Source: Candidatus Heimdallarchaeum aukensis | GTDB taxonomy: Archaea > Asgardarchaeota > Heimdallarchaeia > Heimdallarchaeales > Heimdallarchaeaceae | Direction of reading: 5' to 3' | NCBI GenBank assembly: GCA_021513695.1 | Contig: CP084166.1 | Location: 1,952,001-2,016,000 of the forward strand | DNA length: 64,000 nucleotides | Shown: in pieces, positions 6,434 through 64,000 of the stretch | Position numbering within the stretch: position 1 is the stretch's first letter | Layout: the number at the start of each line of letters is the position of its first letter | The notes under the pieces: generated by a model | The model's input: the letters and a program-made list of their open reading frames with translations, nothing else | The model's database searches: none | What the model was told of the DNA's origin: nothing | Made by a program: the position numbers and the translations under genes

Positions 6434-6452
6434 GACTACAATTAATAAAAAA

Positions 6453-7859: not shown

Positions 7860-7953
7860 AATAATAAACGAGATTTCTCTATATAAAGTTAAAGAATTAT
7901 AACATAGCTGGTATTTTTGGAGTTTAAATATTTTCGTAGTATATCTCTAATGA

Positions 7954-8988: not shown

Positions 8989-8992
8989 GAAA

Positions 8993-18260: not shown

Positions 18261-18367
18261 TGGAGCCCCGAGGGGGGATTTCAAGCTTTTGCTCACAACA
18301 AAGAGCTATTTGAACCCCCGACCTTTACCTTACCAAGGTAACGCTCTACCAGCTGAGCTATCGAGGC
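18261..18367 (-). tRNA. tRNA-Thr (anticodon GGU) with a ~30-nt insertion in the T-arm (putative non-canonical intron)
   Basis: Cloverleaf folded by hand: acceptor GCCTCGA/TCGGGGC, D-arm GCTC-AGCTGGTA-GAGC, anticodon arm TTACC-TTGGTAA-GGTAA, T-stem GGGGG/CCCCC, encoded CCA. An AGCTC...TTGAAAT block with an internal hairpin sits inside the T-loop. One extra C leaves the exact exon/intron junction ambiguous. Confidence 0.6.
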
Positions 18368-19604: not shown

Positions 19605-22600
19605 CTATTGTTCAAGAAGAAAATCTGATAAATTAACAGATTTCTTTTTCTCTGTTTTTCTAATTTTACGCTTTGATTTTTTATCAGCTGATCCATCATC
19701 AGGTAGGAACATTGTTAAAATGTTTTGTTTTAGTACGTCTATCCTAGATCGCAAATATTCTGAAACTGAATATTTCGAAACTAAATAATTGATAATATTA
19801 AGATATTTGGTTACTGATTTTTCAAAAACAGTAAGATTTAGCTTATTTGCACCACATTTTGTACAATATCCGCCCAAAGGAATACGACGATAGGTAGTAT
19901 TACAATTTGTGCAACGTATTTTTTGGCTACCAAATCTACGCATATTACCTATAAGATCTGGCAGAAATTGTTTGAAAATTACTCTTGTTGCTACATCGTC
20001 AACATCAACTGCTCTAATCTTACTAGCTAGTTCTAATTGTGCATCCACTTTTTCTTTCATTGTAGCTAAACGAGTATAAAGAGAAGATTTTTCGCCTACG
20101 AAAATTGAGGAAGTCTCATGACTATAGGAAAAACCTTCATAGGCAGCTTTTGTGTTTAACCTATGACTTACAATGTCAATTAAAGGGAGAACCTTCTTTG
20201 CGGGTAATGATTTCAGTGTAGATTCATAAAAAGACAAAGGATAAGAGTTACCTGTATCAACGTTATGAGACTCATCATCAACCTCAAAGGGATCTATTGT
20301 AGAAACCAAAATTAGCGGGGCATCCATTTGACCGCCTCTAACTTCTGGTAAAAAGAATTTTGAAAAATTAAGAAAAGCATCAAGAGCTAGAAGAATACTA
20401 TCCTCATCTCCATCGCAGTTCATCGTAATGCAACTAGTTGTCTGGAAATTATGTAACATTGTGTCATTTCTTATTGTTTCAACTTCCAAACAATATGAAG
20501 CCTCTTCTTTTGCAATATTATTTATTTCAGCTATTTGGTCACATATAGTATTATGTGCTTCTTTAAGTTCATAATAGTGATTGTTGTATTTTATCCGTCT
20601 ATTTTCAGGAAAACCTTTTTTAATAAATTGTTTCAGTTTTTCTTTTTTATTTTGATTAATTAGATCTAGATGTTGCATTATCCAAAGGTCTGCTCCTCTA
20701 ATAGATATTTTGTGAACAACTGTCTTTTTAGGCTCTTTTCCCAATTCTTTATATTTTTCCAATATTTTTTTGCCAAAATGTCCTTCTGGAGAAGATACTC
20801 TAGATCTTACGAATACACCAATGGTTGAAAAGAGATAAGTTATATCCTTTAATAATTCATTTGAAACAGAATAGAATGATATTTCCCCTACATCTTTTGA
20901 GAGCGTTCCATCTCCATCTAGATAGGCGGAAATAAAAGCTAATTTATATTTAGTTGGTACTGTATAGAGAAAGTTTGGCAAACGTTTTCTATAAGCTCCT
21001 TTCCCCATATTCCATGCATATGCGAAAAGATAGGCTAATATTCTTCCAGAACAAATAACGTTTCTTTCTTCGCTGATATAAGGAGTAAGACCTAGAGTTC
21101 GTTTTATTATTTCCACCAAATATTTTCTCATTTTTTCGTCTGGGATAGAAAAATTAATCTGATAACAGTTCTTATTATCCCGAATATGTCCTTCAGAAAT
21201 GTAATAACCTAGAATTCTCATTAACTCATCATTAAAAGGAAAATAGGGAGAAATAGTAAAATCATCTCTAGCCATCCCCAATCTTGCATCTGAAGGGATC
21301 TCATTCCAGTCAAAAATTCCTTCTTTTTGCAAAAGTTCTAAGTGGGATAAGGGGATAGAATCAAACCAGTGATTAGAAAAGAAGTATGTAGAATGAGGTA
21401 TATCGATTCCTTTTGAAAGAATATAATTTAGAAGTATCTTAGTACATGAAGAAGAGTTAATATTGCTGCTTTTTTCTTGAGAAAGTTTATTGCAGAAATC
21501 GTTTAACTTACTTTTTATCCAATTTCGGGCTTTTCTAAGTCTTACTGTGTGTTTAAATTCAGTAAACTTCTTGCTGTCAGGTAAGTTTTTTGCCAATTCC
21601 TCTAAAACATTTACTACTTTGTTATGTTGAAACCCTAACTCTGGAATCTTTGTTTTAATTGCAATATATTCGCCTATTTGTAAATTTCTTGCTTTCACAT
21701 TTTCGAAATCATTTGTCAGTTCATTCAACACGAGCATATTGTGGTCAGGTGTTACTGTTATTTCATTTCCACTTTTGGTTTTTATTTGCAACCATCTTTC
21801 ACTTTTTCCCTTAATCCAATGCTTGATGGGTTGTAAAATAGAAGAAGAGTTTTTTTGATCTAGACTAATGACCTTCCATTCTTTATGAAGATTCTCAATT
21901 GCAAATGTCCCAAAATCATCTACCAGCTTACTCTTAGCTCCTGATTTTATCTCTTCTTCTACTAGTTCTCCAATACTTTTTACAATGACCTGTTTCTTAT
22001 TTTCGTCCCAAATAAGTAGTTGTTCAGTTGGAAATAAACAATTTCTTCTTTTTGCTGCATGCCAATAAGGATGAGCTAATATTACTTTAGCATCAGTAAA
22101 TCCTATTAACCTTCCAGCAATACCTGCTGAAGTATGAGGAGCTAAACCTATAATTAAATGACCAACTAGGTCATTAATTGTTTTTGCTTTGTAAAAGGGA
22201 GGAAGTCCATACAATCTTTCTAACAACTCATCGATAAAATGAGAGACTTTTAGGAGATATTTACCTCCTTCCTCATTAACAATCACATCTTGAATTTTTA
22301 ATTCTAGTAGCTGATCTTCATTTTCTAGTAAATTCCCATGAATATCGTGTGTATAACCTATAGAATGGAGTTTTGAAATTGAAACACCAATTTCTTTTGG
22401 CTTAAAATGCGTAATTACAGCATCAGTAGCATCAAAACGTATTGTTCCATCACGGTATACAAATACATCGTTTAAAGAACGTAATATCCCTTTTACTATA
22501 AATTCTGGTATACGATGTTTATTCATCAGTTTTTTAACAGCTTTTACATTTTTAGGTAAATCAGAGTTAAATTCTCTTGCAATTTTTCTAAATTCTTCGT

Positions 22601-24776
22601 TAATAGGAAAGGGTTTAGTTTTGTAACTAATTAGAGGTATCCCACACCTTTTACATTTATCGTCATTAGATTCTAACCCACATCTTGGACAAAATTTAAT
22701 GATTTCTGTTACTACATTACAACGTGAACATATGGATAAATGCGTAGTAGAACCACATACATGACATTTTCTTTGTACTAATTCGATCTCTATAACTTTT
22801 TTTTCACTCGCGGAAACAATATTTCTTTGATTACCTCCTGCTTCACCAATTGGAAAAAGTAGATGCACTGGAGGTTTCATCTTTCTACTTTTAGCTTTTT
22901 CTGGACGCCCCATTCTTGCACCAGTATAACAAGGACACTTATCTCTCACTTTAATATATTTGTAGGAGTTAATTATTTCTAAAACAGTTTTTGCTTTATT
23001 TTCCACCGGAAGTAAACTTCCATTTTTAAAACCTAAAGATATTAGTAGAGTTTGCGAATGTTCCCCAAATAAAATTTTTCCATCCCTTATAGAGTGAGGA
23101 ATGCATATTTCTTCCAAAATTGTTTTTATCTCTTTATCATAAGGTAACTCTAAATTTTCATCTTTATTATAGTATGATGATATATATTCACGTAACCGAA
23201 TATATGCAGAAATTGAAATATCATTCCAATGATATGTATATTCAGGATGAAGTGGAATATCAAGTAAAAGCGATAGTCCTATAGCTTCTTCAGCGGTTGG
23301 GATAATGTTCAAGGGGTCTTTTATGAACTTATCAAACTTTTGTTTTTTATTTTTAAAAAACTGATTTATCTCTACTTCAGAAAAATTCATTAACTGCTTC
23401 TCAAGTTCTTTTGCCCACCATTCTTCACAATATCCAGAAGGTACAAGATCATGGTTAAACTGGTTAAATTCACCTACACCATAAAGCATATCTCCAAGAA
23501 AAAGAATCTTTTCTATTTGATCTTTTAATTGAATACCTTCTTCATAGGAATTAACTTTACAAACATTACCGTTTTTTAGAAGCACAATAGGTGGATGTAT
23601 AGAATCCACAGGCATGACAATGGCTCCTTTTCCGGGTCTTTCTGTTCGCAAATGTGTTCCACAAACCAAAAAATCATTTGTGATTGCAAAAAGTGCTGGA
23701 TGTACACCCATTGCAGCTAATCCAGTAATTCTAGAACGCCCATATCTAATCCTAAAACCACCTTTCGCGGATGGATGACTAAAAACTGGCCTTCCACCAA
23801 TTACGTCTTGAATATAACCTGTATCAGGCTTAATAAACAAATTATCTTGCTCAATTTCATGTTTACTTGTACCTTTTTCTTCATCAGTTTCTCCAGAATT
23901 CTCAATATTCTGGCTTGAGTGTATTTGTATTAAATCGGAAAACCAGTCCCAACCCTTTAATTTATGTTTTGATACTCTTTTTTCAAGTTTTTTTACTCTA
24001 CCCACAATACCGTCATTAAAAACTAAACAAGCACCTCCTCTAAGTCTATTAGTTTCAATACGTTTCAAATCTCTATTTCCAGAAACTTCAACTTTCTCAG
24101 TAGGTTCTCCTGTGATTTCAATGGGAAGATTTCTTGCCGCAAATCGCTGCTCCTCTTTAGTTGTGGGAAGTTGTAAATGCATTACTTTGTTGTAAAGATC
24201 TATTTCCTCTACCGTTCGCTCTATTTCTCTCTCTGTAGGTTTATACCTATCAAGTTTTAATGTTCGTCGTATGTGATCAGCCAACAAAACACTCATACCC
24301 GCTGCCGTACCACCAGCAGAGCGTATAGGTCCAGCATAGTAAACAGCTAAGTAGTCGGATCCGTCATCATTTTGCTTAATTTTTACTTTCGCTATACCTT
24401 CAAGAGGAGCTGCAGTGATGCTTTCAGTTATTATTGCCAATGATGTACGGAGTGCTTGCTCGGCGAGCTCAATTTTTTCAGAAGAAAAAAATTTACCTTC
24501 AGCTATTTCTTCTGCAATTTTAAATGCCACGCTTTCGCGAGAGAGACCTTGTCTTTCAAGTTCTCTAATTCTCTTCCCAACCCCTTTAGGTCCAATTAAT
24601 CCTTCAACTCGATCAGCAATATCTTTAGCGATAGGTATTTCAACTTCAGAAGAAGGATCATAACCTTTTTTTCTCGCCTGTTTAGCAATCCTATAAGTTT
24701 GTTCTATCAATGAATTAATTTCCTCAAAATATCCCCTAACATTTACTGAAATTAACTCGTCATCTGATATTTCCAT
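19605..24776 (-). CDS. DNA polymerase II (PolD) large subunit DP2, intein-containing
   Basis: DP2 N-terminus, Zn-ribbon clusters, and the RRN/CDGDED catalytic motif split by a 541-aa insertion. Confidence 0.95.
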   Translation of the reverse strand: MEISDDELISVNVRGYFEEINSLIEQTYRIAKQARKKGYDPSSEVEIPIAKDIADRVEGLIGPKGVGKRIRELERQGLSRESVAFKIAEEIAEGKFFSSEKIELAEQALRTSLAIITESITAAPLEGIAKVKIKQNDDGSDYLAVYYAGPIRSAGGTAAGMSVLLADHIRRTLKLDRYKPTEREIERTVEEIDLYNKVMHLQLPTTKEEQRFAARNLPIEITGEPTEKVEVSGNRDLKRIETNRLRGGACLVFNDGIVGRVKKLEKRVSKHKLKGWDWFSDLIQIHSSQNIENSGETDEEKGTSKHEIEQDNLFIKPDTGYIQDVIGGRPVFSHPSAKGGFRIRYGRSRITGLAAMGVHPALFAITNDFLVCGTHLRTERPGKGAIVMPVDSIHPPIVLLKNGNVCKVNSYEEGIQLKDQIEKILFLGDMLYGVGEFNQFNHDLVPSGYCEEWWAKELEKQLMNFSEVEINQFFKNKKQKFDKFIKDPLNIIPTAEEAIGLSLLLDIPLHPEYTYHWNDISISAYIRLREYISSYYNKDENLELPYDKEIKTILEEICIPHSIRDGKILFGEHSQTLLISLGFKNGSLLPVENKAKTVLEIINSYKYIKVRDKCPCYTGARMGRPEKAKSRKMKPPVHLLFPIGEAGGNQRNIVSASEKKVIEIELVQRKCHVCGSTTHLSICSRCNVVTEIIKFCPRCGLESNDDKCKRCGIPLISYKTKPFPINEEFRKIAREFNSDLPKNVKAVKKLMNKHRIPEFIVKGILRSLNDVFVYRDGTIRFDATDAVITHFKPKEIGVSISKLHSIGYTHDIHGNLLENEDQLLELKIQDVIVNEEGGKYLLKVSHFIDELLERLYGLPPFYKAKTINDLVGHLIIGLAPHTSAGIAGRLIGFTDAKVILAHPYWHAAKRRNCLFPTEQLLIWDENKKQVIVKSIGELVEEEIKSGAKSKLVDDFGTFAIENLHKEWKVISLDQKNSSSILQPIKHWIKGKSERWLQIKTKSGNEITVTPDHNMLVLNELTNDFENVKARNLQIGEYIAIKTKIPELGFQHNKVVNVLEELAKNLPDSKKFTEFKHTVRLRKARNWIKSKLNDFCNKLSQEKSSNINSSSCTKILLNYILSKGIDIPHSTYFFSNHWFDSIPLSHLELLQKEGIFDWNEIPSDARLGMARDDFTISPYFPFNDELMRILGYYISEGHIRDNKNCYQINFSIPDEKMRKYLVEIIKRTLGLTPYISEERNVICSGRILAYLFAYAWNMGKGAYRKRLPNFLYTVPTKYKLAFISAYLDGDGTLSKDVGEISFYSVSNELLKDITYLFSTIGVFVRSRVSSPEGHFGKKILEKYKELGKEPKKTVVHKISIRGADLWIMQHLDLINQNKKEKLKQFIKKGFPENRRIKYNNHYYELKEAHNTICDQIAEINNIAKEEASYCLEVETIRNDTMLHNFQTTSCITMNCDGDEDSILLALDAFLNFSKFFLPEVRGGQMDAPLILVSTIDPFEVDDESHNVDTGNSYPLSFYESTLKSLPAKKVLPLIDIVSHRLNTKAAYEGFSYSHETSSIFVGEKSSLYTRLATMKEKVDAQLELASKIRAVDVDDVATRVIFKQFLPDLIGNMRRFGSQKIRCTNCNTTYRRIPLGGYCTKCGANKLNLTVFEKSVTKYLNIINYLVSKYSVSEYLRSRIDVLKQNILTMFLPDDGSADKKSKRKIRKTEKKKSVNLSDFLLEQ
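20418..22040 (-). mobile_element. intein with LAGLIDADG homing-endonuclease domain, inserted in DP2 between RRN and CDGDED
   Basis: The insertion starts with Cys (CLFPTE...) and ends ...SCITMN before extein +1 Cys. The internal LAGLIDADG motifs are ILGYYISEGH and FISAYLDGDG. I checked the codons at both junctions against the DNA. Confidence 0.8.
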
Positions 24777-33312: not shown

Positions 33313-34172
33313 TTTGTTTTTTCATTCCTTTTTTCATAATTTTCTTTATCCTCATAAATAGCCTGCTCAAAAAACTCTTCAAAAATATCATATCTTTCCA
33401 ATTCTTCTTCTATTTCTATTTTTTCCCATTTTTCTATGCTCTTAATTGGTCTATAAATTATTTTATCTTCTTTTTTCCTTTCAGGAAACTCAATTTCTAA
33501 AGAAACTTTCTTTTTCTCAATTTTATATATCTTTGATGCAATATTTCTAAGTTTAGGATCATGCGATGAAATTACAATTGTAATATCTGTTTTTTGGAAA
33601 ATATCTTTAATAATTTCACAAATTTGATCTCTTGTCTCATCATCTAAGTTACCAGTAGGTTCGTCCAACACTAAAATATGTGGGTTGTTAATTAGAGCTC
33701 TAATTATTCCTAATCTCTTTTTTTCTCCACCACTTAGTTGTTCAGGAAAACTTTTTCTCCTGTTTTCTAAACCAAATTTTTTTAACCAATTTTCAATTCT
33801 TTTTTCATCTGAATTTTCTATTCCTCCCAACATTTCTTGAAAAAATAATAAATTTTCTTCGGCTGTTAATGTTGAAATGAGATTATTATCTTGAAAAACA
33901 ATACCAAAGTTTTCTGCACGAAAATCATTTTTCTCTTGTTTATTCATTTGATCATAATATAATCCACAAATTTCAACATCTCCTTCAGTTGGTTCAATTA
34001 ATCCTGTTATTATGTTTAATAATGTTGTTTTTCCGCTTCCACTAGGTCCGTAGAATAGAACGATTTCATCTCTTTTGATTTCTAAATTTACATTTTCAAA
34101 AACAACTAGATCTTCCCAAAATAATTGGAATATTTTTTTAACGTCAGTTAATTTGATAATTACATCGCTCAT
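33309..34172 (-). CDS. ABC transporter ATP-binding protein (MacB/LolD-like)
   Basis: Walker A GPSGSGKTT, signature LSGGEKKR, Walker B LVLDEPT. Confidence 0.85.
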   Translation of the reverse strand: MSDVIIKLTDVKKIFQLFWEDLVVFENVNLEIKRDEIVLFYGPSGSGKTTLLNIITGLIEPTEGDVEICGLYYDQMNKQEKNDFRAENFGIVFQDNNLISTLTAEENLLFFQEMLGGIENSDEKRIENWLKKFGLENRRKSFPEQLSGGEKKRLGIIRALINNPHILVLDEPTGNLDDETRDQICEIIKDIFQKTDITIVISSHDPKLRNIASKIYKIEKKKVSLEIEFPERKKEDKIIYRPIKSIEKWEKIEIEEELERYDIFEEFFEQAIYEDKENYEKRNEKTK

Positions 34173-34240
34173 TTATAACACATTTACAGCTAATAATAGC
34201 AGATTATAAATAGTTATAAACAAAGTAGTTAAAAAACTAT

Positions 34241-34594
34241 TTATTTCTTAACAAGGAGGTTAGATATTTTTTTTATTGTTTGGTCTATCTTTCTTTTTCT
34301 TTCCATTGCTTCCTTAAGTAATATACCTGTTTTTATTTCTTCTTCGATGTTTTCTGGAATTGTTTTTCCTAAATAAGTTCTATACTTGTAATCTGGTTCT
34401 TTACGTAAATAATAATATGGCCCGTGGTAGTAATTTTTGTTTGTTTGGCATTTGCAATTTTTTTTTCCACATTTTATATACTTCTTAGATATAAAACCTA
34501 TAATATATGGTTTTCTTGATAGTGTAGCAATTTTTTTCTCTAACTCTCTACTTTCCTCAATTAACTGCTCTAAAATATTATCAATCGGTGACAT
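34241..34594 (-). CDS. hypothetical Zn-binding protein
   Basis: CGKKNCKC...HGPYYY motif. No family recognised. Confidence 0.4.
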   Translation of the reverse strand: MSPIDNILEQLIEESRELEKKIATLSRKPYIIGFISKKYIKCGKKNCKCQTNKNYYHGPYYYLRKEPDYKYRTYLGKTIPENIEEEIKTGILLKEAMERKRKIDQTIKKISNLLVKK

Positions 34595-34710
34595 AATTTA
34601 GCTTTAAATATCAAATTCTTTAAAATCTCTTAATAATATTAACATACTTTCTGGATATTATCGATATATAAATATTCATTGAAAATATAATATATCAAAG
34701 TAGTGATGCT

Positions 34711-35025
34711 ATGAATGAAGAAAAAGGATTGCTAAAAAGAGAAATAAAAGAAAAAACTAGTTTTGATGGTATTGTAGTAGGAAGAAGAAGACTATATGTT
34801 TACTCAGAAAATTATAGAAAAAAAATAAGCATAGATGATCTAATACTCAATATATTATCTGAAAAAGGTCCTTTAACACGAGACGAATTGGTAGAACTAA
34901 CACATATTCCCAGGACAACACTTTATGATAATCTAGCTCGCTTAATAGATGAAGGTTATGTCAAAAAAGAATCAGTTCCAAGAAAAACTAGAGGAAGACC
35001 TAAAATTCTATTCAAACTTGCATAA
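34711..35025 (+). CDS. small winged-helix DNA-binding protein
   Basis: LTRDELVELTHIPRTTLYDNLARLIDEGYV followed by RKTRGRPK. It lies directly upstream of orc1/cdc6. Confidence 0.5.
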   Translation: MNEEKGLLKREIKEKTSFDGIVVGRRRLYVYSENYRKKISIDDLILNILSEKGPLTRDELVELTHIPRTTLYDNLARLIDEGYVKKESVPRKTRGRPKILFKLA

Positions 35026-35191
35026 AATCTTGATATTATTGATTAATATAATATATTCACAATAGTATTCACTATTTACTAATTTGTTCGATTCGTTAAT
35101 TATCGACAAAGTTAAAGTTGTAATGTTGTAACAAACTAAGAAGTTCATAAAAGTGTATAAACTTTAGTTATTAATTTAAGGAGAAAAAAGA

Positions 35192-36409
35192 ATGGATGAG
35201 CATTCCAATATAGACAGTATATTTGACAAATATTTAGATGAAGATAATCCAATATTTATAAATCGTGAGATACTTAGTCCTAATTATGTTCCTGAATATC
35301 TTCCGCATAGAGAAGATAAATTTGAAGAGATGGCAAAAATATTGGGACCTGCTTTGAGAGGAGGTTCACCCTCTAATATTTTTATTTATGGTACAACTGG
35401 AACAGGAAAAACAGCTGTTACGAAATATGTTTTAAAAAAGTTGAAAAAAAAGGCTGATGAACGAGAAATAGAGTTTAGTTTTTCGTTTTTTAATTGCCAA
35501 CATATTGACACAAAGTATCGCGTATTTGCTCAGTTGTGTGATGATATAGCAGTTGATGTTCCATTTACAGGTCTTCATTTTGATATTGTTTATCAAAAAT
35601 TTAAAGAGGGGCTAGATGAATTAAAAACTCTTCATATTATTGTATTAGATGAAGTTGATTCCTTGTATAGAAAGAGTACTGAATCATTATACATCCTTAC
35701 TAGATTAAATAGTGAATTGGTTCAATCAAAAATTGGGATAATAGGTATCACGAACGATGTGAATTTCAAAGAAACTTTGGATCCTAGGATACGTAGTAGT
35801 TTAAGTGAAGAAGAAATCGTTTTTTCACCATATACTGCTGAACAATTAAAAGATATTTTGAATCAACGAGTAGAAAAAGCGTTAAACAAAGACGCTTTAG
35901 AATTTGGTGTTTTGAACTTATGTGCTGCAATTGGAGCTCAACAGCATGGAGATGCTAGACGGTCAATAGATCTTCTACGTGTTGCTGCAGAATTAGCTGA
36001 ACGAGAAGGAGCTGAAAAGGTAACAGAGTTACATGTAAGAAAAGCTCAACAAGTTATAGAAAGAAATACAGTTGTTGAAGTATTGAGTTCATTACCCATT
36101 CAAACAAAAGCTGTCTTACAAGCTATATTTATTGGTGAAAGTAAAAGTGAGGAACTAAATACAGGCGATGTTTATGATATTTATTCTTCAATTTGTAAAC
36201 TAATACGTTTAGATCGTTTAACTCCTAGAAGAGTTAGTGATTTAATCAATGAATTGGATATGCTAGGTCTTGTGACAGCTAGAGTAATAAGTAAAGGTCG
36301 ATATGGGCGTTCAAAAAGAATTAATCTTACTATTCCCAAGGCACAAGTTAAAGAGATTTTAGAAAAAGATTTTAGACTTTCAAAAGTTTTTGAGGAGAAT
36401 TCAGTTTGA
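35192..36409 (+). CDS. cdc6: Orc1/Cdc6 replication initiator
   Basis: PEYLPHREDKFEEM, Walker A GTTGTGKT, Walker B VLDEVD, and a C-terminal winged helix. Confidence 0.9.
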   Translation: MDEHSNIDSIFDKYLDEDNPIFINREILSPNYVPEYLPHREDKFEEMAKILGPALRGGSPSNIFIYGTTGTGKTAVTKYVLKKLKKKADEREIEFSFSFFNCQHIDTKYRVFAQLCDDIAVDVPFTGLHFDIVYQKFKEGLDELKTLHIIVLDEVDSLYRKSTESLYILTRLNSELVQSKIGIIGITNDVNFKETLDPRIRSSLSEEEIVFSPYTAEQLKDILNQRVEKALNKDALEFGVLNLCAAIGAQQHGDARRSIDLLRVAAELAEREGAEKVTELHVRKAQQVIERNTVVEVLSSLPIQTKAVLQAIFIGESKSEELNTGDVYDIYSSICKLIRLDRLTPRRVSDLINELDMLGLVTARVISKGRYGRSKRINLTIPKAQVKEILEKDFRLSKVFEENSV

Positions 36410-42157: not shown

Positions 42158-42970
42158 TTGAGATTAAAAACAAAAAAACGTGGTGCTAGTAATATTATTG
42201 CAACACTTGTAATCTTCGTAGTCATGCTTTCTGCAATAACTTTGGCATTTTCGCAAGTACTCCCATCTGTTGAAAAATTTCAAGCAAGTTCAGATTTTGT
42301 AGCTGCTGAAAACACATTCATGAATATTGATAGTTCAATTAAAAAATTAATTAATTCTCCTGAAAATGCTTCAGAAATTATCCGTTATGAAATAAATAAA
42401 GGAATTTTAGATATGTCTTTTGATCGTTCAATTAATCTCGCTATAGAATCAGAAAAAGTTGTGATATTTAACTATTCAACCTTACTTGGACAGTTAACTT
42501 ATCAGCTAGATGGTCACTACAAAGGATATGGTGGCTCAATTTATAGTGTAGGTTCACCTGATTTACTAGTTTATTCACCAAACAGAACTACTGATGTAAC
42601 TAATATCGTATATCAGACTTTTGATGGCTATAAACTCCTTAAATTATACTATGATATATTCGTTTCAATTGAAAATGTAAAGTCAGACGAAGTTGAAGTT
42701 AACTTTATACTCATAAATTTGAACACTACCCACGTAAATAATAATCAAAAAGAGTATTTTCCATTAATCAATAGTGAAGCAAAACTCGAGTTGTCTAAAA
42801 GAGCGCAAATCCTAAAGTCATATTCTTTAGGAACATTCAGTACTGATTTAACAATTAATGCTGAAACTTCGAATTATCTACAGAAGTTAGATTATGATTA
42901 TGCTCCATCAACATCTTTTTCGTTAGTTGTTAACATTATTACAGTTGACATCAACTTTAGCATAGTTTAA
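42158..42970 (+). CDS. archaeal type IV pilin-like protein (class III signal peptide)
   Basis: Basic N-terminus KKRGAS followed by a hydrophobic helix NIIATLVIFVVMLSAITLAF, as in prepilin-peptidase substrates. Confidence 0.5.
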   Translation: MRLKTKKRGASNIIATLVIFVVMLSAITLAFSQVLPSVEKFQASSDFVAAENTFMNIDSSIKKLINSPENASEIIRYEINKGILDMSFDRSINLAIESEKVVIFNYSTLLGQLTYQLDGHYKGYGGSIYSVGSPDLLVYSPNRTTDVTNIVYQTFDGYKLLKLYYDIFVSIENVKSDEVEVNFILINLNTTHVNNNQKEYFPLINSEAKLELSKRAQILKSYSLGTFSTDLTINAETSNYLQKLDYDYAPSTSFSLVVNIITVDINFSIV

Positions 42971-50889: not shown

Positions 50890-50917
50890 ATAGGCGAAAA
50901 CTGATATCTAAAGTAAT

Positions 50918-53900
50918 CGAACTATGCCTACGCCATGCTGTGGATGACTTGGCTGGGGAACCGATGAAGGTCGTGGTAAGCCGCGAAAGGCCTCGGGGAG
51001 ACGCAAACAGTCTACGATCCGAGGGTCACCGAATGGGGATCCCGACACAGCCTAATAAGTTGTGTCAACCAGTAATGGTGGGGAACGTGGGGAACCGAAA
51101 CATCCAAGTACCCACAGGAAAAGAAAACAATTGTGATTCCGTGAGTAACGGCGAGTGAAAGCGGAACAGGTCAAACCGAATTCCCTTTTCGAAAGATTAG
51201 GGTAGATGTGGTGTTTGTGACTGCAATATGGACCGTCAGCGTGAAGTCGAAGACAATGTGGAACATTGCGCCATAGAGGGTAAAAGCCCCGTAGACGTAA
51301 GCGCTCGGCCTAGCAGGATCAAGACTAGCGTGGCTTGGATTTGTCGCGCAAATATGGGAAAACTATGTCCCAAACCTAAATATTCCCCCAGACCGATAGC
51401 GCACTAGTAGCGTGAGCAAAAGTTGAAAAGTATCCAAAATATGGGAGTGAAAAGACCCTGAAACAGCATGGTAACAGACGTGGATGGCTCGAAAGCGTAG
51501 ATTCTCAGCGAAGGAACTCACCGTGAGGTGTTAGTACGAGCTGAGAGGAGCGGGGTCATCCGTTCCGTCTAGAAACACGGGCCGAGGAGTTCAGATTCGT
51601 GGCGAGCCTAAACGTATGTGGTGGCGTAGCGAAAGCGACCTGCACGCAGCACTTATGTGCCAGGTGCGACGTACGATAAGTGCGTGAAGTCACGGGTCTG
51701 AGACACGAAAGGAGTCGATCTACCCCTGGTTAAGGTGAAGCGCTTCGAAAGGAGCGTGGAGGCCTGAAGGGTTTCTAATATGCAATTTGTTCCTCTGAAC
51801 TGGGGGTAGTGGCAAAAGACCAATCTAGACTCCTGATAGCTTGTTCCCGCCGAAGTATAACCACAGTATAGCGTCACCGGAGGTTGCATGTGAGGTAGAG
51901 CTACGGACGGGTTGTCCCGGGGAGTGAAATCCTCGCCAATCCTTCCAACTCCGAACTTGCATGCGCCGTAGATGGTGGCAGACGGGCGTGTATCCGCAAG
52001 GGATATGGCCGCGAGGGGTTCAACCCAGAGGTTGGTTAAGGGCCCTAAATCCTGGTTAAATGTTAAACTGAATGACGTCCAACGGCTTAGACAATGAGGC
52101 GGTAAGCTTAGAAGCAGCTATCCGTTAAAAAAAGCGTAACAGCTTACTCATCGAGCTGTTGGGCTCAGAAAATGGACGGGGCTAAACCAGGTCCCGATAC
52201 CAATCCGAACTTCAAAAGAGTTTTGGGTAGGCGGGCGATCAGGTTGGGCTGAAGCTGGGGGGTGACTCCCAGTGGACCGGCTTGATTTGCAGATCTCGGC
52301 GGTAGTAGGAGCATAGTGAGGTGAGAATCCTCATCGCCGAAAGCCCAAGGGTTCCTTGGCACTGTTCGTCAGCCAAGGGTTAGTCGGTCCTAAGGGTGAT
52401 CTTAACACGAATCACTCGAAAGGGAAACAGGTTCATATTCCTGTACCGCGCATATAGGTGTGGTGACACAAGCTTTGAGCAGACACTGGTGGGTAGGTGG
52501 CCTAGGAGCGTATCCTAGTTAAATCCCGAATTCTGGGGAGAACCGTTATGGTGAGAACCAGAAGAATGGATGAATAGGCTGGCCATCGGTTGCTGGCTGC
52601 CATCAATCCCAACAGTCCATGAAAATGCGAGAAGAACGATTATGCGCGACCGTACCCAGAACCGTGACAGGTGTGGCTAGCTGAGAAGGCTAAGGCGTGT
52701 TAGGAGAAATCAGGTGAAGGAAATCGGCAAATTAGCCCCGTATCTTGGGTATAAGGGGTGCCTGGAAAGGTGTATGCCTTCCCAGGTCGCAGTGACAAGG
52801 GGCACCCGACTGTTTAATAAAAACATAGCAAACTGCAAGGGTGAAAACCTGTGTACAGTTTGTGAATCCTGGCCGGTGCTGGTGATTGAAACCTGGGTAC
52901 AACCAGGCTAAGACCCAGTAAACGCCGGAGCTAACTATGAGCTTCTTAAGGTAGGCAAATGCCTTGTCTGCTAATTACAGACGTCCATGAAGGGACCAAC
53001 GAGGTGCCCACTGTCTCCACCTGAATCCTACTGAACCCACAGTCCAGCGAACAGTCTGGAATGCACCATCGGGAAGAGAAGACCCTGTAGAGCTTTACTG
53101 CTGTCAGAGGCTGTTGTACTGGTGCTCATACATAGAATAGTCAGGAGGCGTCGATCCTACATTCTCCGGGATGTAGGGGAGCCGACAGTGAAATACTGAC
53201 TTTGAGCATTGGTACGACTCACCTCTTGCGAGGGGGACACCCTCTGCCTGGCAGTTTCACTGGGGCGGTAGCCTCTTGAAAAGATATCAAGAGGGCCCAA
53301 AGCCAAGCTCAACCGGGACAGAAATCCGGTGTAGAGTGCAAGGGCAAAAGCTTGGTTGACTGTGAACTGATAGAGAAGGTTCGCAGATGTTAACGCAGGG
53401 CCTAGCGATCCTTCGCATTGCCCATAGTAGGCGGCGGAGGTGGCGGAAAAGTTACCTCAGGGGTAACTACACTTTGATGTTACACTATCAAAGTGGCTAG
53501 ACAAAAAGGAACTTTTCCTGCATTGCACTTTATCTTTTCAAGGGCACGAAAAAATGAAACAAAAAAATAAAGCTAAGGTGGGTCAAATTTTACCCGAATG
53601 AATAATATACCGCAAAAAAAAGTTATCGAGTGAGGATTACTTACAAGTTTTCGCCTAATGGTCAAAAGGAAAACTTGAGCGGATTAGAACGGATCCAACA
53701 TCTGCCTTAACCATCAAGAAAAAAGACCCTTGGAAAAGATGAAGAGCCATTTTGAAAGTGTGAGGTCAAGAGGTTATTAGATCGGTAACTTGCCTTAAGC
53801 CGAGGCTGACAACTAATCTAATAACCGAAGTCGAAAAGACTGGTGTAGCCCTGAACAGAGTTGTCGTGGGTAAGAGTTCACATCGACCTCACGGCTTGCT

Positions 53901-54340
53901 ACCTCGATGTCGGCTCTTCCTAGCTTGGAGGTGATTCAGCTTCCAAGAGTGGGGTTGTTCGCCCATTAAAAGGGAACGTGAGCTGGGTTTAGACCGTTGT
54001 GAGACAGGTTGGATTCTATCTGATGGTGCTGGCGGGAGATTGAGAGTAAAACCTCCACAGTACGAGAGGAACAGGCGGTTGGGGCCTCTGGTGTATCGGT
54101 TGTCCTCCCGGGCATTGCCGAGTAGCTAAGCCCTTGAAGATAAGAGCGGAAAGCATCTATGCTCGAAGCTTCTCTCGAAACGAGTCTCCCATTCTGTACC
54201 TTTTGGGGGCTGGTGACAGCAACCTTTGGTATAGACGAGAGCACGGAAAGAAGATCCGGTTGATAGAGCAGGGGTGTGCGCGTCGAGCTTCGGCGAGATG
54301 TTTAGCCCACTGCTACTAATCGCTCAAGCGTAGTTCGACC
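50918..54340 (+). rRNA. 23S (large-subunit) rRNA, interrupted by a ~389-nt insertion
   Basis: Conserved 23S blocks recognised by eye: 5' GGATGACTTGGCTGGGGAACCGATGAAGG, GACTGTTTAATAAAAACATAGC, GGGGTAAC...AGAGTTCACATCGAC...CTCGATGTCGGCTCTTCC. The 5' and 3' ends pair (GAACTATGC / GCGTAGTTC). GC is about 50%, against about 30% for the genome. Confidence 0.9.
53468..53856 (+). other. putative 23S rRNA intron (non-coding, AT-rich)
   Basis: The conserved domain V sequence GGGGTAAC|AGAGTTGTCGTGGGTAAGAGTTCACATCGAC is split by about 389 nt of AT-rich sequence. The boundaries are ambiguous by 2-3 nt. Confidence 0.6.
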
Positions 54341-55953: not shown

Positions 55954-56787
55954 ATGAAGAAATTTGACATTGTAGCCACTGATAACTTTATATTACTTCA
56001 ATCAGGAAAAACATTTGTTGGTATTGTTGGTTATGCAATTATCTGTATAGATTGTTCCTTTGAAGAACAAAATAAAGCAGTAAAAGATCTTGTCAAACTT
56101 ATTATTGAGCTAAATCTTTCCTTTACTTTCCATTTTGAAGAAAAAGCAGTAAAGATCTTTTTCTTAATTAGTAGTAGTAAAACGACAGATATCTTAAACT
56201 CTGTTGTTAAATTAGAATCAAGGATAAGTCTTCTGTCAAACACTAGTCAATTATTCCTCTCTCCTCTTAATCATAAGGAATTATCTCATAAGATTTCAAG
56301 GTTCTATTTTCGCTCTGTAAATAAGACCATTTGTGAAAAAACTTTTCACTTAGGCGATTCCTTATTTACTTTTTTCACATTTATTCCCATTTCTAACAAA
56401 AATGAGACGATAACTCCTATCATACAACGTTTAGTTAAACAATATAAGTGTAAAGTTGTTCTCAGTAATAGATTAGAAAAAGTAAAAAATTCAGATTGTA
56501 ACTATCTTCAGGGCATCATTATCTCAAAGGAGTTAGGAAACGAAAAGGAAAAAGATATTTTCTTTAATCAGTTTAATGAACTTCTGGACATTCACGATCC
56601 TGATTGTACTATATTGGTTCGATTTTTTTCAGCAAAAGAAATTGAACAAAATAAAATTTTCTTTGCTTTGGGTTATCCCACAATCGAAAGTCATTTTGAC
56701 AACGATATGCTTTGTAAAATGGTTCAGAACAGTTTATCTAACACTATTAAAAAGAGGGTTGGTTTTTCTACTCTACCAAATAGTTAA
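55954..56787 (+). CDS. hypothetical protein
   Basis: ORF upstream of rpp21 on the same strand. Confidence 0.4.
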   Translation: MKKFDIVATDNFILLQSGKTFVGIVGYAIICIDCSFEEQNKAVKDLVKLIIELNLSFTFHFEEKAVKIFFLISSSKTTDILNSVVKLESRISLLSNTSQLFLSPLNHKELSHKISRFYFRSVNKTICEKTFHLGDSLFTFFTFIPISNKNETITPIIQRLVKQYKCKVVLSNRLEKVKNSDCNYLQGIIISKELGNEKEKDIFFNQFNELLDIHDPDCTILVRFFSAKEIEQNKIFFALGYPTIESHFDNDMLCKMVQNSLSNTIKKRVGFSTLPNS

Positions 56788-59802: not shown

Positions 59803-60567
59803 TTATTCGGTTTCAAATTTTTTTACAATATAGTTTCCAATAATCTCAAAAGCTTTATCGATATTTACGCCTGTTTTTGCTGATGTTTGTAGGAAAAAGT
59901 TTTCAACTCCCTTTTCTTTTGTTTTTTTATTCAAATCATCTACAAACTTAGCTATTTCATCTTTTCTAACTTCTTGATTAGGAAGGTCACTCTTATTTCC
60001 TAAAATAATAACTGGTATTACTCCCCTACCATTATTTTGGTAAAGTTCTTCTAACCATGTAGAAAGGTTTGTAAAAGTCTCTCTTCTTGTTAAATCAAAA
60101 ATAGCTAAAGCACCAAAACATCCACGATAAAAACGACTTCTTACTCTTTTAAAGAACTCTTGGCCTGCAATGTCCCAAATTTGAAATTTGATACTATCTC
60201 CATCTATTGTTGTTTCTTTTACAGCAAAATCTGCACCTAGGGTGGCAAGATGTTCTTTTACAAATCCTTCTCCCAGATATTTTCTCCTTATCGAAGTTTT
60301 ACCCACTGCCCCATCGCCAATTAAAACAAGTTTGATCATGAAGGATTTTTTCTCCTTATCTGGCTTTTTTTCCACCATGTTCTTACGTTTATTTACTTCT
60401 TTTGTGGTCTTTGGCATATTCTCTTGAAATAGAGTTATGCCCTTTTTTGTTTCAGATTCCTTTTGTTTTTTTTCCATCTCTGATACAACCTTATTTTTAT
60501 TGAATATAAATATTACCAGTTTTTGCAATTTTTTAGCAAGTGGACAGTTGGAACTAATGTTCTTCAT
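59803..60567 (-). CDS. Rab-like small GTPase with ~75-aa N-terminal extension
   Basis: G1 GDGAVGKTS, G3 WDIAGQE, G4 GNKSD, G5 TSAK. Confidence 0.7.
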   Translation of the reverse strand: MKNISSNCPLAKKLQKLVIFIFNKNKVVSEMEKKQKESETKKGITLFQENMPKTTKEVNKRKNMVEKKPDKEKKSFMIKLVLIGDGAVGKTSIRRKYLGEGFVKEHLATLGADFAVKETTIDGDSIKFQIWDIAGQEFFKRVRSRFYRGCFGALAIFDLTRRETFTNLSTWLEELYQNNGRGVIPVIILGNKSDLPNQEVRKDEIAKFVDDLNKKTKEKGVENFFLQTSAKTGVNIDKAFEIIGNYIVKKFETE

Positions 60568-60617
60568 ATCTTTTGAAAAAAATATGAGAAAGCGAATATT
60601 TATCTTAAACTAGTAAG

Positions 60618-63392
60618 TTAAGTAATATATTGATTCTTTATTTGTAAGATATTTTCAATTTGAAGCATAATACAATACTCTAAACTTTTTGTTAGTTCTA
60701 TTTTCTTTGATTTAGATATTATATGAATTAATTTTTTTAGTTGATTAAGTTTTAATTGTATTATTTTATCTAAAGAAATTTGTGAGAGCAATAACTCGAT
60801 AATCAACTTTGCTGAGTATTCATTGATTTTACAAGCATTATTATCGTTATAATACTCACATTTTACGCAATCAATCAAATTTTCATTTTCAAAAATATCG
60901 TCATTAATTCCAGGTAAATTATTTTCTGATTTTTTGTAATTTATACTGGAAAATAATGAGCTTTTTCTCTCAACTCTCTTTTGTTTTTCGAATTCCATAA
61001 TTTCTGCTGTACCTTGTAAGTTATCACCCTTTCCTATTTCAACTCCTGTGTCATTTTCATTAGTGAAGAATATGCTTTGATTAATGATGTTTCGCATTTC
61101 AATAAAGTTTGTATATAATAGAGGATATCGAATGTTTTTATATCGTTGATTAAGAATAGATCTATATTTTACTTGGGAGACAGGTTTCAGTTCACAATCT
61201 TTTGTTTTTATTTCTCGTGCTTCTATACTATCTTTGCTTAGTATTAAACAATGTCTAGTGGGAAGAGTGTGAATTTTTTTAATAGCTGATTCTGGTAAGT
61301 TTAGTGTTGAAGCAATATATTCTGATTTTTCACTTGTTCTGAAGATTACTTTTGTTGCTGAGTTCCCATGAACAATATTGCTTACACTTTCCCAAAGTTG
61401 AGAAACAGTAATATGTCCTATTCCCAAGTTTCTTCCAAGTAAAAAATTGTTTTCTGCAGTTATTAATGATGCAGAACTGTCTGAGTTATATATTTTAGGA
61501 ATAATATTTACTGCTTCTTCTAAAACAACAACATAGCGTAAAGAATCACTTGTTCCCTTTAAAGAAGCATATTTATAGAACATTTTCAGAATAAGATTTG
61601 TAATTAAAAAAATATCAGAAGGTCTTGCTGCACGTTTTTGAAACTCGCTGAGATCTAGAATTATGCTCTTTCCTCTTTCAAAAATAGAAAAATCTATTGT
61701 CGTAGTATTTACGCCTAAAATCTCAAAATTTGTAGGGTTGAAAATATAATTTAATCTATTTAAAACTGCGTCTAATGTTTGTTGAATGTAAGAAGTGTTT
61801 ATCCTTTCTTTAATCTTTTCTGAAAGTTCAAACAATTTTTCTACAAAAGTACTAAGGTTTGGATTATTCGATTTATGTGTTAAAAAAAGGGTATTTTCAA
61901 ATAAATTTTTCATTGCAGGGCTAAATTCTTGTTTGGCTGACTCCATCATTTCTTCAATTATTAAAATTGTTGATTTCAGATCTTCTTCATCTGTATTCCT
62001 AAATAAATTAATACAGAGAGGATTAGGTTTACCTATTGTATAAATCTCTGCATTCTCATTTGTAACAAATGAAGCAGCATACTCACCTTTAATATCAAAA
62101 ATTAAACAATTAATATTTTCTTTTAACAAATGAGAAATAATATTTTTCACAAAACTTGTTTTTCCCTGTCCAACCATTCCATAGACTTCAATGTTGTACA
62201 ATATGTCTTCAATATTAATCTTACATGCCTCAAAATTGTTATTACCTTCTAAAATTGAACCAACTTCTATTACTTTGTCTGTTTTATCTTTCTTTTTGAA
62301 GTCTAGATTTTTTTCTCTAATCGCTGAAATTGATCCACTTGTAATTCCATCTGGAACATGAAAAAAAGAAATTATGTTGGCGTTATTAATTATTTTTCTA
62401 CTCTTAACTTGTTTTTTTGAAAAAATAACATTCCAAATAGAGGAAGAAAAAACAAGTCTTTTTAATTTAACATGCAAGGAATTTTCGATAATTTTTTTTT
62501 CCAAAGTTGTATCTGTAGAAATATAATAATCAAAAGAATATTTCGTTTTCTTTTTATGTTTAAACATATCAATATATAATGTGGCACTCTTTATTTCTGG
62601 ATTAATAAAAATCTGATAGAATTTATCAATTAAATTTATCTTTTGTTTTTTTAGATTTGTCTTATTTAGCCTATATCTCTTCTTCTGGTGGTTTATAAGA
62701 AAACGAAGATGTTTGATCTGTTTTTTAGATAACACTCTTGTTTCAAGATTGTAATGGAGTAATAATGAGTTTTCAACGTATAGAAGTTTGTTTTTGATAT
62801 TTTTTTCTATTTTCTTTGGATTGAACCCTTTTTCTGCAAATACAAAAGAAAATATTATGTTATTCACTTCTTTTGTCAGCAGTATATTAAACCTGAAATA
62901 GGAGCTAAAAATATCATCTACAAAATCTTGATGATGTTTTTCTCCAAAAAACTTTTTTTGAAGAAATAAAGCTGTATTTTTTTGAACCGTAGCAATAGTC
63001 GATATTCGGTAATAGGGTAGACCGAACTTTTTCTCAATAAAGAATGAGTCATTTTCTATTTCTGAAAAAGGAAGGAATTTTGTTATCATTAAAACTATAC
63101 AGAGCGCTAAAGTGGCATATACAACTCTCCAAAGAATTGTCTTTGTTTTAATGATCAAATTAGAAAAAAAGGCAATAAGATCCAAAAATCTAAAATTAAT
63201 ATCTATATCTAAAAGTGAACTGATACTCAATATTAGTTTGCTATTTACAGGAAGATCATGAAAAATATACAGAAATGAAAAAAAAGATATAACAATAATA
63301 ATAAGATATCGAAGAATTTTACGGAGAAAAAGTTTTTTCTTATGAATAATTCTTTTATTTTGAGGGTAATTAGAATATCGCTTTTTAAACAT
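60618..63392 (-). CDS. membrane-anchored HerA/VirB4-like P-loop ATPase (DUF87/AAA_10-like)
   Basis: N-terminal TM helices, Walker A GMVGQGKTS, FDIKGEY, Walker B VVVLEEA, an FtsK/HerA-like VSQLWE segment, and a C-terminal CxxC...C. Confidence 0.6.
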   Translation of the reverse strand: MFKKRYSNYPQNKRIIHKKKLFLRKILRYLIIIVISFFSFLYIFHDLPVNSKLILSISSLLDIDINFRFLDLIAFFSNLIIKTKTILWRVVYATLALCIVLMITKFLPFSEIENDSFFIEKKFGLPYYRISTIATVQKNTALFLQKKFFGEKHHQDFVDDIFSSYFRFNILLTKEVNNIIFSFVFAEKGFNPKKIEKNIKNKLLYVENSLLLHYNLETRVLSKKQIKHLRFLINHQKKRYRLNKTNLKKQKINLIDKFYQIFINPEIKSATLYIDMFKHKKKTKYSFDYYISTDTTLEKKIIENSLHVKLKRLVFSSSIWNVIFSKKQVKSRKIINNANIISFFHVPDGITSGSISAIREKNLDFKKKDKTDKVIEVGSILEGNNNFEACKINIEDILYNIEVYGMVGQGKTSFVKNIISHLLKENINCLIFDIKGEYAASFVTNENAEIYTIGKPNPLCINLFRNTDEEDLKSTILIIEEMMESAKQEFSPAMKNLFENTLFLTHKSNNPNLSTFVEKLFELSEKIKERINTSYIQQTLDAVLNRLNYIFNPTNFEILGVNTTTIDFSIFERGKSIILDLSEFQKRAARPSDIFLITNLILKMFYKYASLKGTSDSLRYVVVLEEAVNIIPKIYNSDSSASLITAENNFLLGRNLGIGHITVSQLWESVSNIVHGNSATKVIFRTSEKSEYIASTLNLPESAIKKIHTLPTRHCLILSKDSIEAREIKTKDCELKPVSQVKYRSILNQRYKNIRYPLLYTNFIEMRNIINQSIFFTNENDTGVEIGKGDNLQGTAEIMEFEKQKRVERKSSLFSSINYKKSENNLPGINDDIFENENLIDCVKCEYYNDNNACKINEYSAKLIIELLLSQISLDKIIQLKLNQLKKLIHIISKSKKIELTKSLEYCIMLQIENILQIKNQYIT

Positions 63393-63500
63393 TTAACCAC
63401 TTTTAGCGATTTAATTTGTTAACCTAAATAGCCTATAAAAACACAAAGCTTGATTAAAAAAAGAGAAAATAGAGTCTAGATTAACCTAAAAAACTCTAGC

Positions 63501-63704
63501 TCATAACATTTTCAAAATATACATTCCCACTAAAATTATTTCACATAAGAGAAGAAACAGGCTTGCAATTGTAAATCCAAGGATAAATCCAATAACTATA
63601 CTTATCCCATTCATTAAAATTCCAAATAAGATAAAGATGTCATCTATTGTTAATGAAAAGGAAAACTTTTTTCTTGTGATATCACTTTTTTCCAAATAAA
63701 TCAT
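63501..63704 (-). CDS. small two-TM membrane protein
   Basis: 67-aa hydrophobic ORF immediately upstream of the ATPase gene. Confidence 0.35.
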   Translation of the reverse strand: MIYLEKSDITRKKFSFSLTIDDIFILFGILMNGISIVIGFILGFTIASLFLLLCEIILVGMYILKML

Positions 63705-64000
63705 GTCGATTCTTTTTTGTAAAATAATAAGTTTTTTGTTTTAATAACGATTTCTTGTTCTTTTTCTAAAAAAAGAGTTTATAAAAGAAAAAATTTGTTT
63801 AACAACGTCCTATAGCCTGCAGAATACAATTTGCATCTTTTTATTTATATCTTAAAAGATTCGATTGAGCAACTCATTTTCTCGAAGTTAAAAAACTTTA
63901 AAAAGAAAATGGAAGTGGTGATATTAGGTTCTAACCGCGCTTGACCGTTGGTTATATCCCAAACGGAAGCGGTAGAGGTTGATATTATGAATGAACAACA

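Follow-up and report, generated by a model that had tools for sequence, protein, structure and literature searches.

The question raised by this locus is whether a membrane-anchored ATPase gene with a small membrane open reading frame (ORF) directly upstream of it amounts to a DNA-transfer module. The gene lies at 60618-63392 (minus strand, from the ORF list) in a 64,000-nucleotide stretch of Candidatus Heimdallarchaeum aukensis (contig CP084166.1, positions 1,952,001 to 2,016,000), referred to here as the window, and its 924-amino-acid (aa) product has 100% identity with the NCBI 'ATP-binding protein' of this organism, encoded on a 3.08-Mb contig. An earlier sequence-only reading saw the gene and a 67-aa ORF upstream as a possible module similar to the Ced system of Crenarchaeota or to a type IV secretion system (T4SS), with further components past the end of the window. 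What is found instead is a chromosomal gene that stands alone. It encodes a membrane-tethered HerA-clade ATPase, sits in housekeeping neighbourhoods and belongs to a small family almost confined to Asgard archaea. The identity of the protein as a membrane-anchored HerA/VirB4-like ATPase is thus upheld, along with the features first named for it, and the module is not.

Architecture of the membrane-tethered ATPase

Two hydrophobic segments at residues ~25-49 and ~85-109 (63066-63320; Kyte-Doolittle scan; all coordinates within the gene are on the minus strand) form the expected N-terminal transmembrane (TM) anchor, and hydropathy scans place such segments at the equivalent position in most relatives, including those of the more distant second tier described below. 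They are followed by a middle, N-terminal cytoplasmic domain (NTD) of alpha/beta type at residues ~115-345 (62358-63050), which closes on a conserved 'FHVP' (H-x-P) motif. The motifs 'KG-x-P ... Q-I-D', 'W-x-x-S-x-Y' and 'L-x-x-x-x-H-L-P' of this domain are kept family-wide and its predicted order of secondary structure elements is identical in both AlphaFold2 (AF2) models that were made. Searches of its profile against PDB and Pfam ended without a significant match, as did an hhalign comparison with a VirB4-like protein (0.45% probability).

The P-loop ATPase domain occupies residues ~373-732 (61197-62276), within which Pfam recognises the DUF87/HerA central domain (PF01935) at residues 375-589 (E 1.3e-15, 58.6 bits against a cut-off of 23.2), as it does in 36 of 39 family members. 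Both Walker A (GxxGxGKT/S) and Walker B (hhhhEE/DE) are intact, the former as G405-MVGQGK-T412 (62157-62180) and the latter as V621-VVLE-E626 (61515-61532), so that all three motifs picked out by the sequence-only reading are present, GMVGQGKTS at residues 405-413, FDIKGEY at 432-438 and VVVLEEA at 621-627. Walker A residues G405, G408, G410 and K411 are invariant across the 39 family members and E625 of Walker B is near-invariant; among 14 full-length relatives L624, E625, E626 and A627 are all invariant.

The C-terminal part runs from a conserved 'PLLY-x-NFIEMR' helix through a low-complexity linker rich in K, E, N and Q (residues ~775-835, 60888-61070), which is predicted to be disordered (predicted local distance difference test, pLDDT, 24-33) and varies in length and sequence among relatives, to a Cys-containing helical module at residues ~838-924 (60621-60881; pLDDT 74-80). 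The general pattern of this module is C-x2-3-C-x8-9-C, helices and a further C, and the C-terminal CxxC cluster reported earlier is seen here as C842-x2-C845-x8-C854 with the distal C907. C845 and C907 never vary among the 14 full-length relatives, where C854 is conserved in at least 90% and the first Cys is shifted by one position; the same pattern is also present in a second-tier member, P0034. The full-length AF2 model, built from 7 sequences, is poor (mean pLDDT 46.9, below 50 in the TM region), and a trimmed construct was better in the ATPase domain only, where pLDDT reaches 70-89 over residues ~373-732.

Clade of the ATPase domain

The placement of the ATPase domain was examined with a profile of 23 ATPase-domain sequences compared to solved structures in PDB. 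Proteins of the HerA family gave the strongest matches, with E-values from 1.1e-22 to 1.3e-17 (9c1m, 8wiv, 4d2i, 8j4u, 8xau, 9x1l, 8yho and 8ziq), against 2.5e-9 for DptH, 1.6e-5 for STIV B204, about 1e-4 for conjugative coupling proteins, 8.5e-3 for FtsK and 0.028 for VirB4 (4ag5). By sequence, then, the domain is of the HerA clade. FtsK identity was considered and rejected, the HerA profile matches being far stronger, and neither a Pfam match to FtsK_SpoIIIE (PF01580) nor a gamma-type winged helix was identified in the protein. Pfam likewise found neither CagE_TrbE_VirB (PF03135) nor AAA_10 (PF12846) in it, AAA_10 being matched in one of the 39 family members, and no HAS-barrel at E-values up to 0.1; a weak match to TrwB_AAD_bind (residues 401-450, E 4.6e-5) covers the P-loop only.

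Structure comparison is less discriminating. A Foldseek search of the ATPase model against PDB placed HerA 4d2i at the top (2.5e-14) with VirB4 4ag5 near to it (2.7e-12), and the two were not separable by this means, so the modelled domain is best described as having the HerA/VirB4/TrwB fold with an all-helical insertion. Moreover, the ATPases CedB and CedD belong to the HerA clade as well and carry a TM region, and their NTD is VirB4-like in structure only (PMC11868833), with the consequence that clade placement cannot decide on a Ced-like role. The sequence-only reading had named two outcomes that would speak against it, namely an ATPase domain clustering with FtsK and HerA helicases and the lack of conserved membrane partners. 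The second is what was found; the first also holds for HerA at the level of sequence, yet is uninformative for the reason just given.

Distribution of the family

Word-indexed searches recovered the close family only, about 10 relatives, whether the query was the protein itself or a profile of 7 or 39 sequences. When 1.84 billion representatives were searched exhaustively with HMMER, 584 matches were obtained at E ≤ 1e-3, about a dozen of them full-length clusters. Further matches make up a second tier, which has E-values of 1e-39 to 1e-10 and lengths of 660-1440 aa, aligns over residues ~320-740 and has a mostly similar plan, comprising N-terminal hydrophobic helices in most members, a middle region of 300-400 aa and the DUF87 ATPase. 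Its named members come from Thorarchaeota, Ranarchaeia, Jordarchaeales, 'Asgardarchaeia' and Promethearchaeota, the sole named non-Asgard member being one more distant cluster from Latescibacteria.

A scan of one genome per species found full-length relatives at 37 loci, nearly all labelled Heimdallarchaeota, and some of these genomes carry 2-4 copies. No relatives were found on 72,556 plasmids or on IMG/VR viral contigs; one phage record shows weak similarity in the ATPase part only. The family is inherited vertically in Heimdallarchaeia, with relatives in other Asgard lineages. No earlier description of it was found in the literature searched.

Gene context across Asgard loci

Neighbouring ORFs were called and clustered around 39 first-tier loci, to which 16 second-tier loci from a metagenome scan were added, making 55 in total. 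Across these, no VirB6/CedA-like polytopic gene, no integrase and no other T4SS gene (VirB2, VirB3, VirB8 or VirD4) was found within ~7-10 kb of the ATPase gene, and NurA, Mre11 and Rad50 were missing among the neighbours at loci L001-L043. The search for a VirB6/CedA-like gene was also negative over the whole 64-kb window, where the polytopic proteins are ABC-2 and FtsX/MacB permeases distant from the ATPase, and over the 10 kb beyond its edge.

That edge is of particular interest, as the sequence-only reading expected the system to run on past position 64000 and proposed a look 5-10 kb further for a CedA/VirB6-like gene, att sites and an integrase. The contig stretch L001, which reaches 10 kb either side of the ATPase, has none of these. 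It has instead the genes for ribosomal proteins L1, L10 and P1 (Pfam Ribosomal_L1, Ribosomal_L10 and Ribosomal_60s), on the strand opposite to the ATPase, with the start of the L1 gene at 63987-64000 (+) in the window (mapped from position 9406 of L001); beyond this operon lie unrelated genes, including those for a PD-(D/E)XK protein, an HxlR regulator and a ParA-like ATPase. The expectation was therefore wrong. Integrase, att site and tRNA gene are all lacking near the ATPase, the only tRNA gene in the window being at 18294-18367. The further idea that the remainder of an integrated conjugative or mobile element lies past the window edge, for which the weak TrwB_AAD_bind match and the small upstream TM ORF could be cited, is contradicted by this sequence, by synteny repeated in related genomes and by the lack of plasmid or viral relatives, and retains scarcely any probability.

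A neighbour-joining tree separates the ATPase subfamilies, and each has its own neighbourhood. In type A (19 loci) the ATPase gene is followed by L1, L10 and P1 and then, in the opposite orientation, by genes for a 105-aa protein, a small GTPase, FIST, AF0774 and a KaiC-like protein, often with a TPR-like gene upstream. The three Heimdallarchaeum loci (L001, L006 and L007) have the elements of type A rearranged as a divergent L1 operon, the 67-aa ORF, the ATPase and the GTPase. Type B (five loci: L005, L021, L028, L029 and L032) has a TnpB gene downstream, and these copies occur alongside L1-operon copies within single genomes. In this paralogue lineage the TnpB (Cas12f1-like_TNB, ~530 aa) is always 3' of the ATPase.

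The remaining arrangements bring in genes of DNA metabolism. Type C (four loci) has a type IA topoisomerase gene 211-1678 bp away, and type D (six loci in the range L037-L043, with 27-28% identity) has the order EMG1, ATPase, Orc1/Cdc6 and ArsR-type regulator, Orc1/Cdc6 being co-directional and 105-119 bp downstream in all six. Among second-tier loci, L056 and L057 adjoin aconitase and have Orc1/Cdc6 2 kb away, and the neighbours at L044-L049 are an A-type ATP synthase subunit, NrdD with its activase, a winged-helix regulator, OapC, a GTPase, OapB and PEP synthase. The OapC, GTPase and OapB genes are 1.5-2.7 kb from the ATPase in five of these six loci, while the contig of L047 stops short of them.

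Small membrane ORFs upstream of the ATPase

The presumed small membrane partner of the ATPase is the two-TM, 67-aa ORF at 63501-63704 (minus strand), which is present directly upstream as first described and consists, by hydropathy scan, of essentially two hydrophobic helices in a hairpin. It is probably a real gene, since comparison with locus L006, where 66 of its 67 residues are identical and the ATPase is 91% identical, shows seven synonymous codon changes against one non-synonymous; the surrounding intergenic DNA is well conserved too. As a partner it fares poorly, being restricted to the genus Heimdallarchaeum (L001, L006 and L007), missing upstream at 31 of 34 evaluable Heimdall loci and without similarity to VirB2/TrbC or any family match. 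Oligo-T tracts act as terminators in archaea and the TATA box is an established promoter element. The 108-bp spacer between this ORF and the ATPase gene (63393-63500, minus strand), as read from the sequence, contains runs of oligo-T and has a TATA-like TTTTTATA ~47 nt ahead of the ATG, which suggests that the two genes are transcribed separately.

At 9 of 50 evaluable loci a survey found, no more than 450 bp upstream of the ATPase and in the same direction, an ORF of 40-130 aa that encodes two or more hydrophobic helices; in these AT-rich loci the chance rate is 5.9% per interval surveyed. The nine comprise two lineages, Heimdallarchaeum (67-73 aa) and L044-L049 (81-83 aa), and one probable artefact, and a small upstream TM protein was accordingly rejected as a conserved partner. 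The ORF of L044-L049 (e.g. L046 9640-9885) is a well conserved two-helix protein with the loop SRFDPNGGKR, located 52-62 bp upstream of the second-tier ATPase; it is unrelated to the 67-aa ORF by comparison and, like it, has no convincing match to TrbC/VirB2 or another family. At L054, L056 and L057 two other small genes are divergently upstream of another second-tier ATPase, one encoding a 61-aa protein with a Flp/pilin-like N-terminus KRGSPLIEEVMLIGMAIL (e.g. L056 2836-3021, minus strand) and the other a 109-aa protein with ~4 TM helices (e.g. L056 3153-3482, minus strand), and neither has a Pfam match.

The sequence-only reading also drew in a type IV pilin-like gene at 42158-42970 (+). This 270-aa ORF does have a class III signal-like N-terminus, KKRGAS/NIIATLVIFVVMLSAITLAF, with no Pfam match. 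Its membership of a module did not hold up, as it is 18 kb away from the ATPase, with genes for PEPCK, pyrophosphatase, tRNA-guanine transglycosylase and 23S rRNA in between; type IV pili and type IV secretion are, besides, different machines.

A proposed role at the host chromosome

The explanation we favour, at somewhat less than an even chance, is that the ATPase acts on DNA and serves the host chromosome at the membrane, rather than plasmid conjugation. Four separate subfamilies adjoin genes of replication initiation or DNA topology, and nothing points to a mobile element, which together favour a DNA substrate and a chromosomal role. In mechanistic terms, the two N-terminal TM helices would hold the ATPase at the cytoplasmic membrane, ahead of the family-specific alpha/beta domain, and the P-loop domain, judging from its structural relatives, presumably forms a hexameric ring that would drive a polymer through the central channel at the expense of ATP. 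The small four-cysteine helical module, borne on a flexible charged linker, is probably metal-binding and may recognise the substrate or a partner. With DNA as the likely polymer, the work done may consist in partitioning or clearing DNA, or in the passage of chromosomal DNA.

Several points weigh against this explanation. HerA-fold ATPases are also found in defence (Sir2-HerA and DptH) and FtsK-type ATPases in protein secretion (EccC). No DNA-binding domain was identified in the 924-aa protein, and its C-terminal Cys-helical module has no match in PDB or Pfam; winged-helix DNA-binding tails were considered as a general family trait and rejected, as they were seen in only 2 of 10 relatives' tails as sub-threshold TrmB/MarR matches. 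Both AF2 models rest on alignments of 7-9 sequences, with a low-confidence NTD. The linkage to replication genes is missing in the main L1-operon subfamily and for the copy in the window, where Cdc6 is 24 kb off and a repeat search beside Orc1/Cdc6 gave no convincing origin-recognition-box repeats. Finally, the proximity of Orc1, Oap and topoisomerase genes elsewhere could reflect origin-proximal clustering of core genes.

A more specific proposal, which we regard as distinctly unlikely, is that of an Asgard-specific single-polypeptide motor in which a membrane module resembling EccE or the VirB3/VirB4 NTD is joined to a ring ATPase of HerA/VirB4 fold and to a metal-binding C-terminal module, and which would move chromosomal DNA at or across the membrane. 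If true, this motor would be the long-sought archaeal functional analogue of FtsK in chromosome partition, or the engine of cell-to-cell exchange of chromosomal DNA, in the closest prokaryotic relatives of eukaryotes. A conserved membrane-tethered motor, nearly confined to Asgard archaea and repeatedly encoded beside Orc1/Cdc6, origin-associated genes or topoisomerase, is a testable candidate for keeping or clearing DNA at the division site of archaea that divide with FtsZ, or for the exchange of chromosomal DNA among Asgard archaea. Should its function prove mundane, the family is still useful as a lineage marker with two uncharacterised domains. The locus also carries a warning for annotation, in that a TM region, a DUF87 ATPase and a small TM ORF need not mean a conjugation module; here they have ribosomal neighbours and the small ORF is genus-specific.

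Alternative explanations

The chief competitor to the host-chromosome role, which we consider rather unlikely, is that the ATPase is an Asgard counterpart of CedB, CedD and TedB, i.e. a domesticated, chromosomally fixed motor derived from a T4SS that moves chromosomal DNA between cells, with the channel (VirB6/CedA-like) and pilin (VirB2/CedA1-like) encoded elsewhere and the hairpin ORFs as divergent pilin or VirB3-like subunits. The order of TM region, NTD and HerA-clade ATPase is common to CedB and CedD (PMC11868833), and the structural matches to VirB4, together with a conserved two-helix ORF 52-108 bp upstream in two lineages (67 aa and 81-83 aa), are consistent with such a role. Against it, the 55 loci lack a VirB6/CedA-like gene, the hairpin ORFs are missing from most lineages, are mutually unrelated and do not match TrbC/VirB2, the NTD profile gave no likeness to VirB4 NTDs in PDB or Pfam or, by hhalign, to a VirB4-like protein, and the VirB4 sequence families are unmatched but for AAA_10 in a single member; Asgard archaea are also unmentioned in a paper on Ced/Ted systems. 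The missing neighbours deserve some caution: if cedB is unlinked from cedA in Sulfolobus, their absence counts only weakly against a Ced-like motor.

Rather than DNA, the substrate could be a protein or other polymer, as in type VII-like secretion, in which case the ATPase would carry, fused to it, an EccE-like scaffold made up of the TM hairpin and the cytoplasmic domain. EccE consists of two TM helices, a linker helix and a beta-rich cytoplasmic domain (PMC6986878). In structure comparison of a control model without the TM region and with a poor NTD, the EccE matches were gone and TrwK dropped below the C-terminal domain, so both signals stem from the N-terminal part; the loss of the EccE matches along with the TM region and a reliable NTD counts in favour of a secretion motor. 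This likeness is a lead, coming from a weak model (the one with mean pLDDT 46.9 and a TM region below 50) for which aligned ranges are unreported. No EccB, EccD or WXG100-like neighbour occurs at any locus examined and the ATPase is nearer to HerA/VirB4 than to FtsK/EccC, leaving a secretion motor as very unlikely.

Weaker again, and in our judgement highly improbable, is an anti-phage defence ATPase, comparable to HerA where it partners Sir2 or DUF4297, or to DptH of Dnd: the top matches in NCBIfam and PADLOC are to HerA models of defence systems and one paralogue lineage adjoins TnpB, but these matches span the generic P-loop region only, at 41 bits against a curated cut-off of 800, no Sir2, DUF4297 or nuclease effector is adjacent at any locus examined, and the conserved housekeeping synteny and vertical inheritance are unlike those of variable defence islands.

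Surroundings of the gene in the window

Downstream of the ATPase lie genes for a Ras/Rab-like small GTPase, S19e, a dsDNA_bind protein, L39e, L31e, eIF6 and FtsZ. The small GTPase gene (59803-60567, minus strand; Pfam Ras, E 1.3e-40) starts 50 bp after the ATPase gene and retains its own TATA-like region, and orthologues are found within ~3 kb of the ATPase at 20 of the 39 loci, on either strand. In H. endolithica (L007 12816-13760) an insertion sequence (IS) element with a DDE_Tnp_1 transposase (E 1.5e-10), flanked by repeated TTAGTTTAAAATAAA, is located exactly between the ATPase stop and the GTPase start, a site equivalent to ~60568-60617 of the window. As this element parts the two genes, the GTPase was rejected as an obligatory operon partner and counts as a linked neighbour.

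On the other side, the 5' leader of the L1 gene (63911-63986, +) is essentially unchanged between two Heimdallarchaeum species; the 99 bases that follow the L1 start carry no changes, against ~10% change in intergenic DNA further on. It contains a long predicted hairpin (minimum free energy -27.7 kcal/mol, z -3.3), and an Rfam scan of the region between L1 and the 67-aa ORF gave no match. By analogy with the L1 operon of Methanococcus, the leader may be an autoregulatory mRNA site for L1.

Other observations concern the wider window. A 277-aa ORF at 55954-56787 (+), with FtsZ on one side and an Rpr2-like gene on the other, is conserved in the related species and has as its sole match a weak, sub-threshold one to the ABC-3C C-terminal domain. 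The 23S rRNA gene (50916-54339, +) has no adjacent 16S gene in the window; in another Heimdall genome a G+C-rich uncalled stretch, putatively an rRNA gene, is directly upstream of the ATPase homologue (L002 ~6400-9800). The Orc1/Cdc6 gene (35192-36409, +) is preceded by a 1-kb intergenic gap (34172-35192) at the cumulative GC-skew minimum, and the gene for the DNA polymerase D large subunit (DP2; 19605-24776, minus strand) contains an intein with a LAGLIDADG homing-endonuclease domain inside.

Comparison with known systems

Canonical HerA, as in HerA-NurA (4d2i, 9x1l), belongs to the family that the ATPase domain matches best by sequence, and differs in overall plan. The Asgard protein is membrane-anchored and about twice as long, has TM helices and then an alpha/beta NTD in place of the HAS-barrel, and lacks NurA, Mre11 and Rad50 neighbours. 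EccE, to which the N-terminal part bears a modelled resemblance, differs in being a separate protein that is not fused to an ATPase, and no other type VII secretion genes are beside the Asgard gene; the match itself comes from a low-confidence model.

Compared with VirB4 proteins (TrwK, TraB and VirB3-VirB4 fusions), the Asgard ATPase is predicted to have the same type of C-terminal ATPase fold. It differs in its marginal profile similarity (E 0.028), in leaving the Pfam VirB4 families unmatched, in having no T4SS partner genes nearby and in not being on mobile elements. Closer in organisation, to judge by published descriptions (PMC11868833), are CedB and CedD, along with TedB, which are membrane-anchored and share a TM region, an N-terminal cytoplasmic domain and a C-terminal HerA-clade ATPase of VirB4-like fold, and whose genes, like those studied here, are chromosomal rather than plasmid-borne. 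The differences are that neither CedA (VirB6-like) nor a conserved CedA1 (VirB2-like) gene was found near any of the 55 Asgard loci, that the Asgard NTD is not detectably VirB4-like by sequence, that the Asgard protein has the extra C-terminal linker and four-Cys helical module, and that Ced is a system of Crenarchaeota.

FtsK/SpoIIIE and Streptomyces TraB differ in sequence family, as the missing FtsK_SpoIIIE match and gamma-type winged helix indicate, yet offer an analogous order of membrane anchor, linker or extra domain, ring ATPase and small C-terminal module, and the tie to the host chromosome that the Orc1/Cdc6, Oap and topoisomerase neighbours suggest is in keeping with them too. Membrane-anchored motors of HerA/VirB4 type were already known, and it is by its two uncharacterised domains, its distribution and its genomic context that the Asgard variant is distinct.

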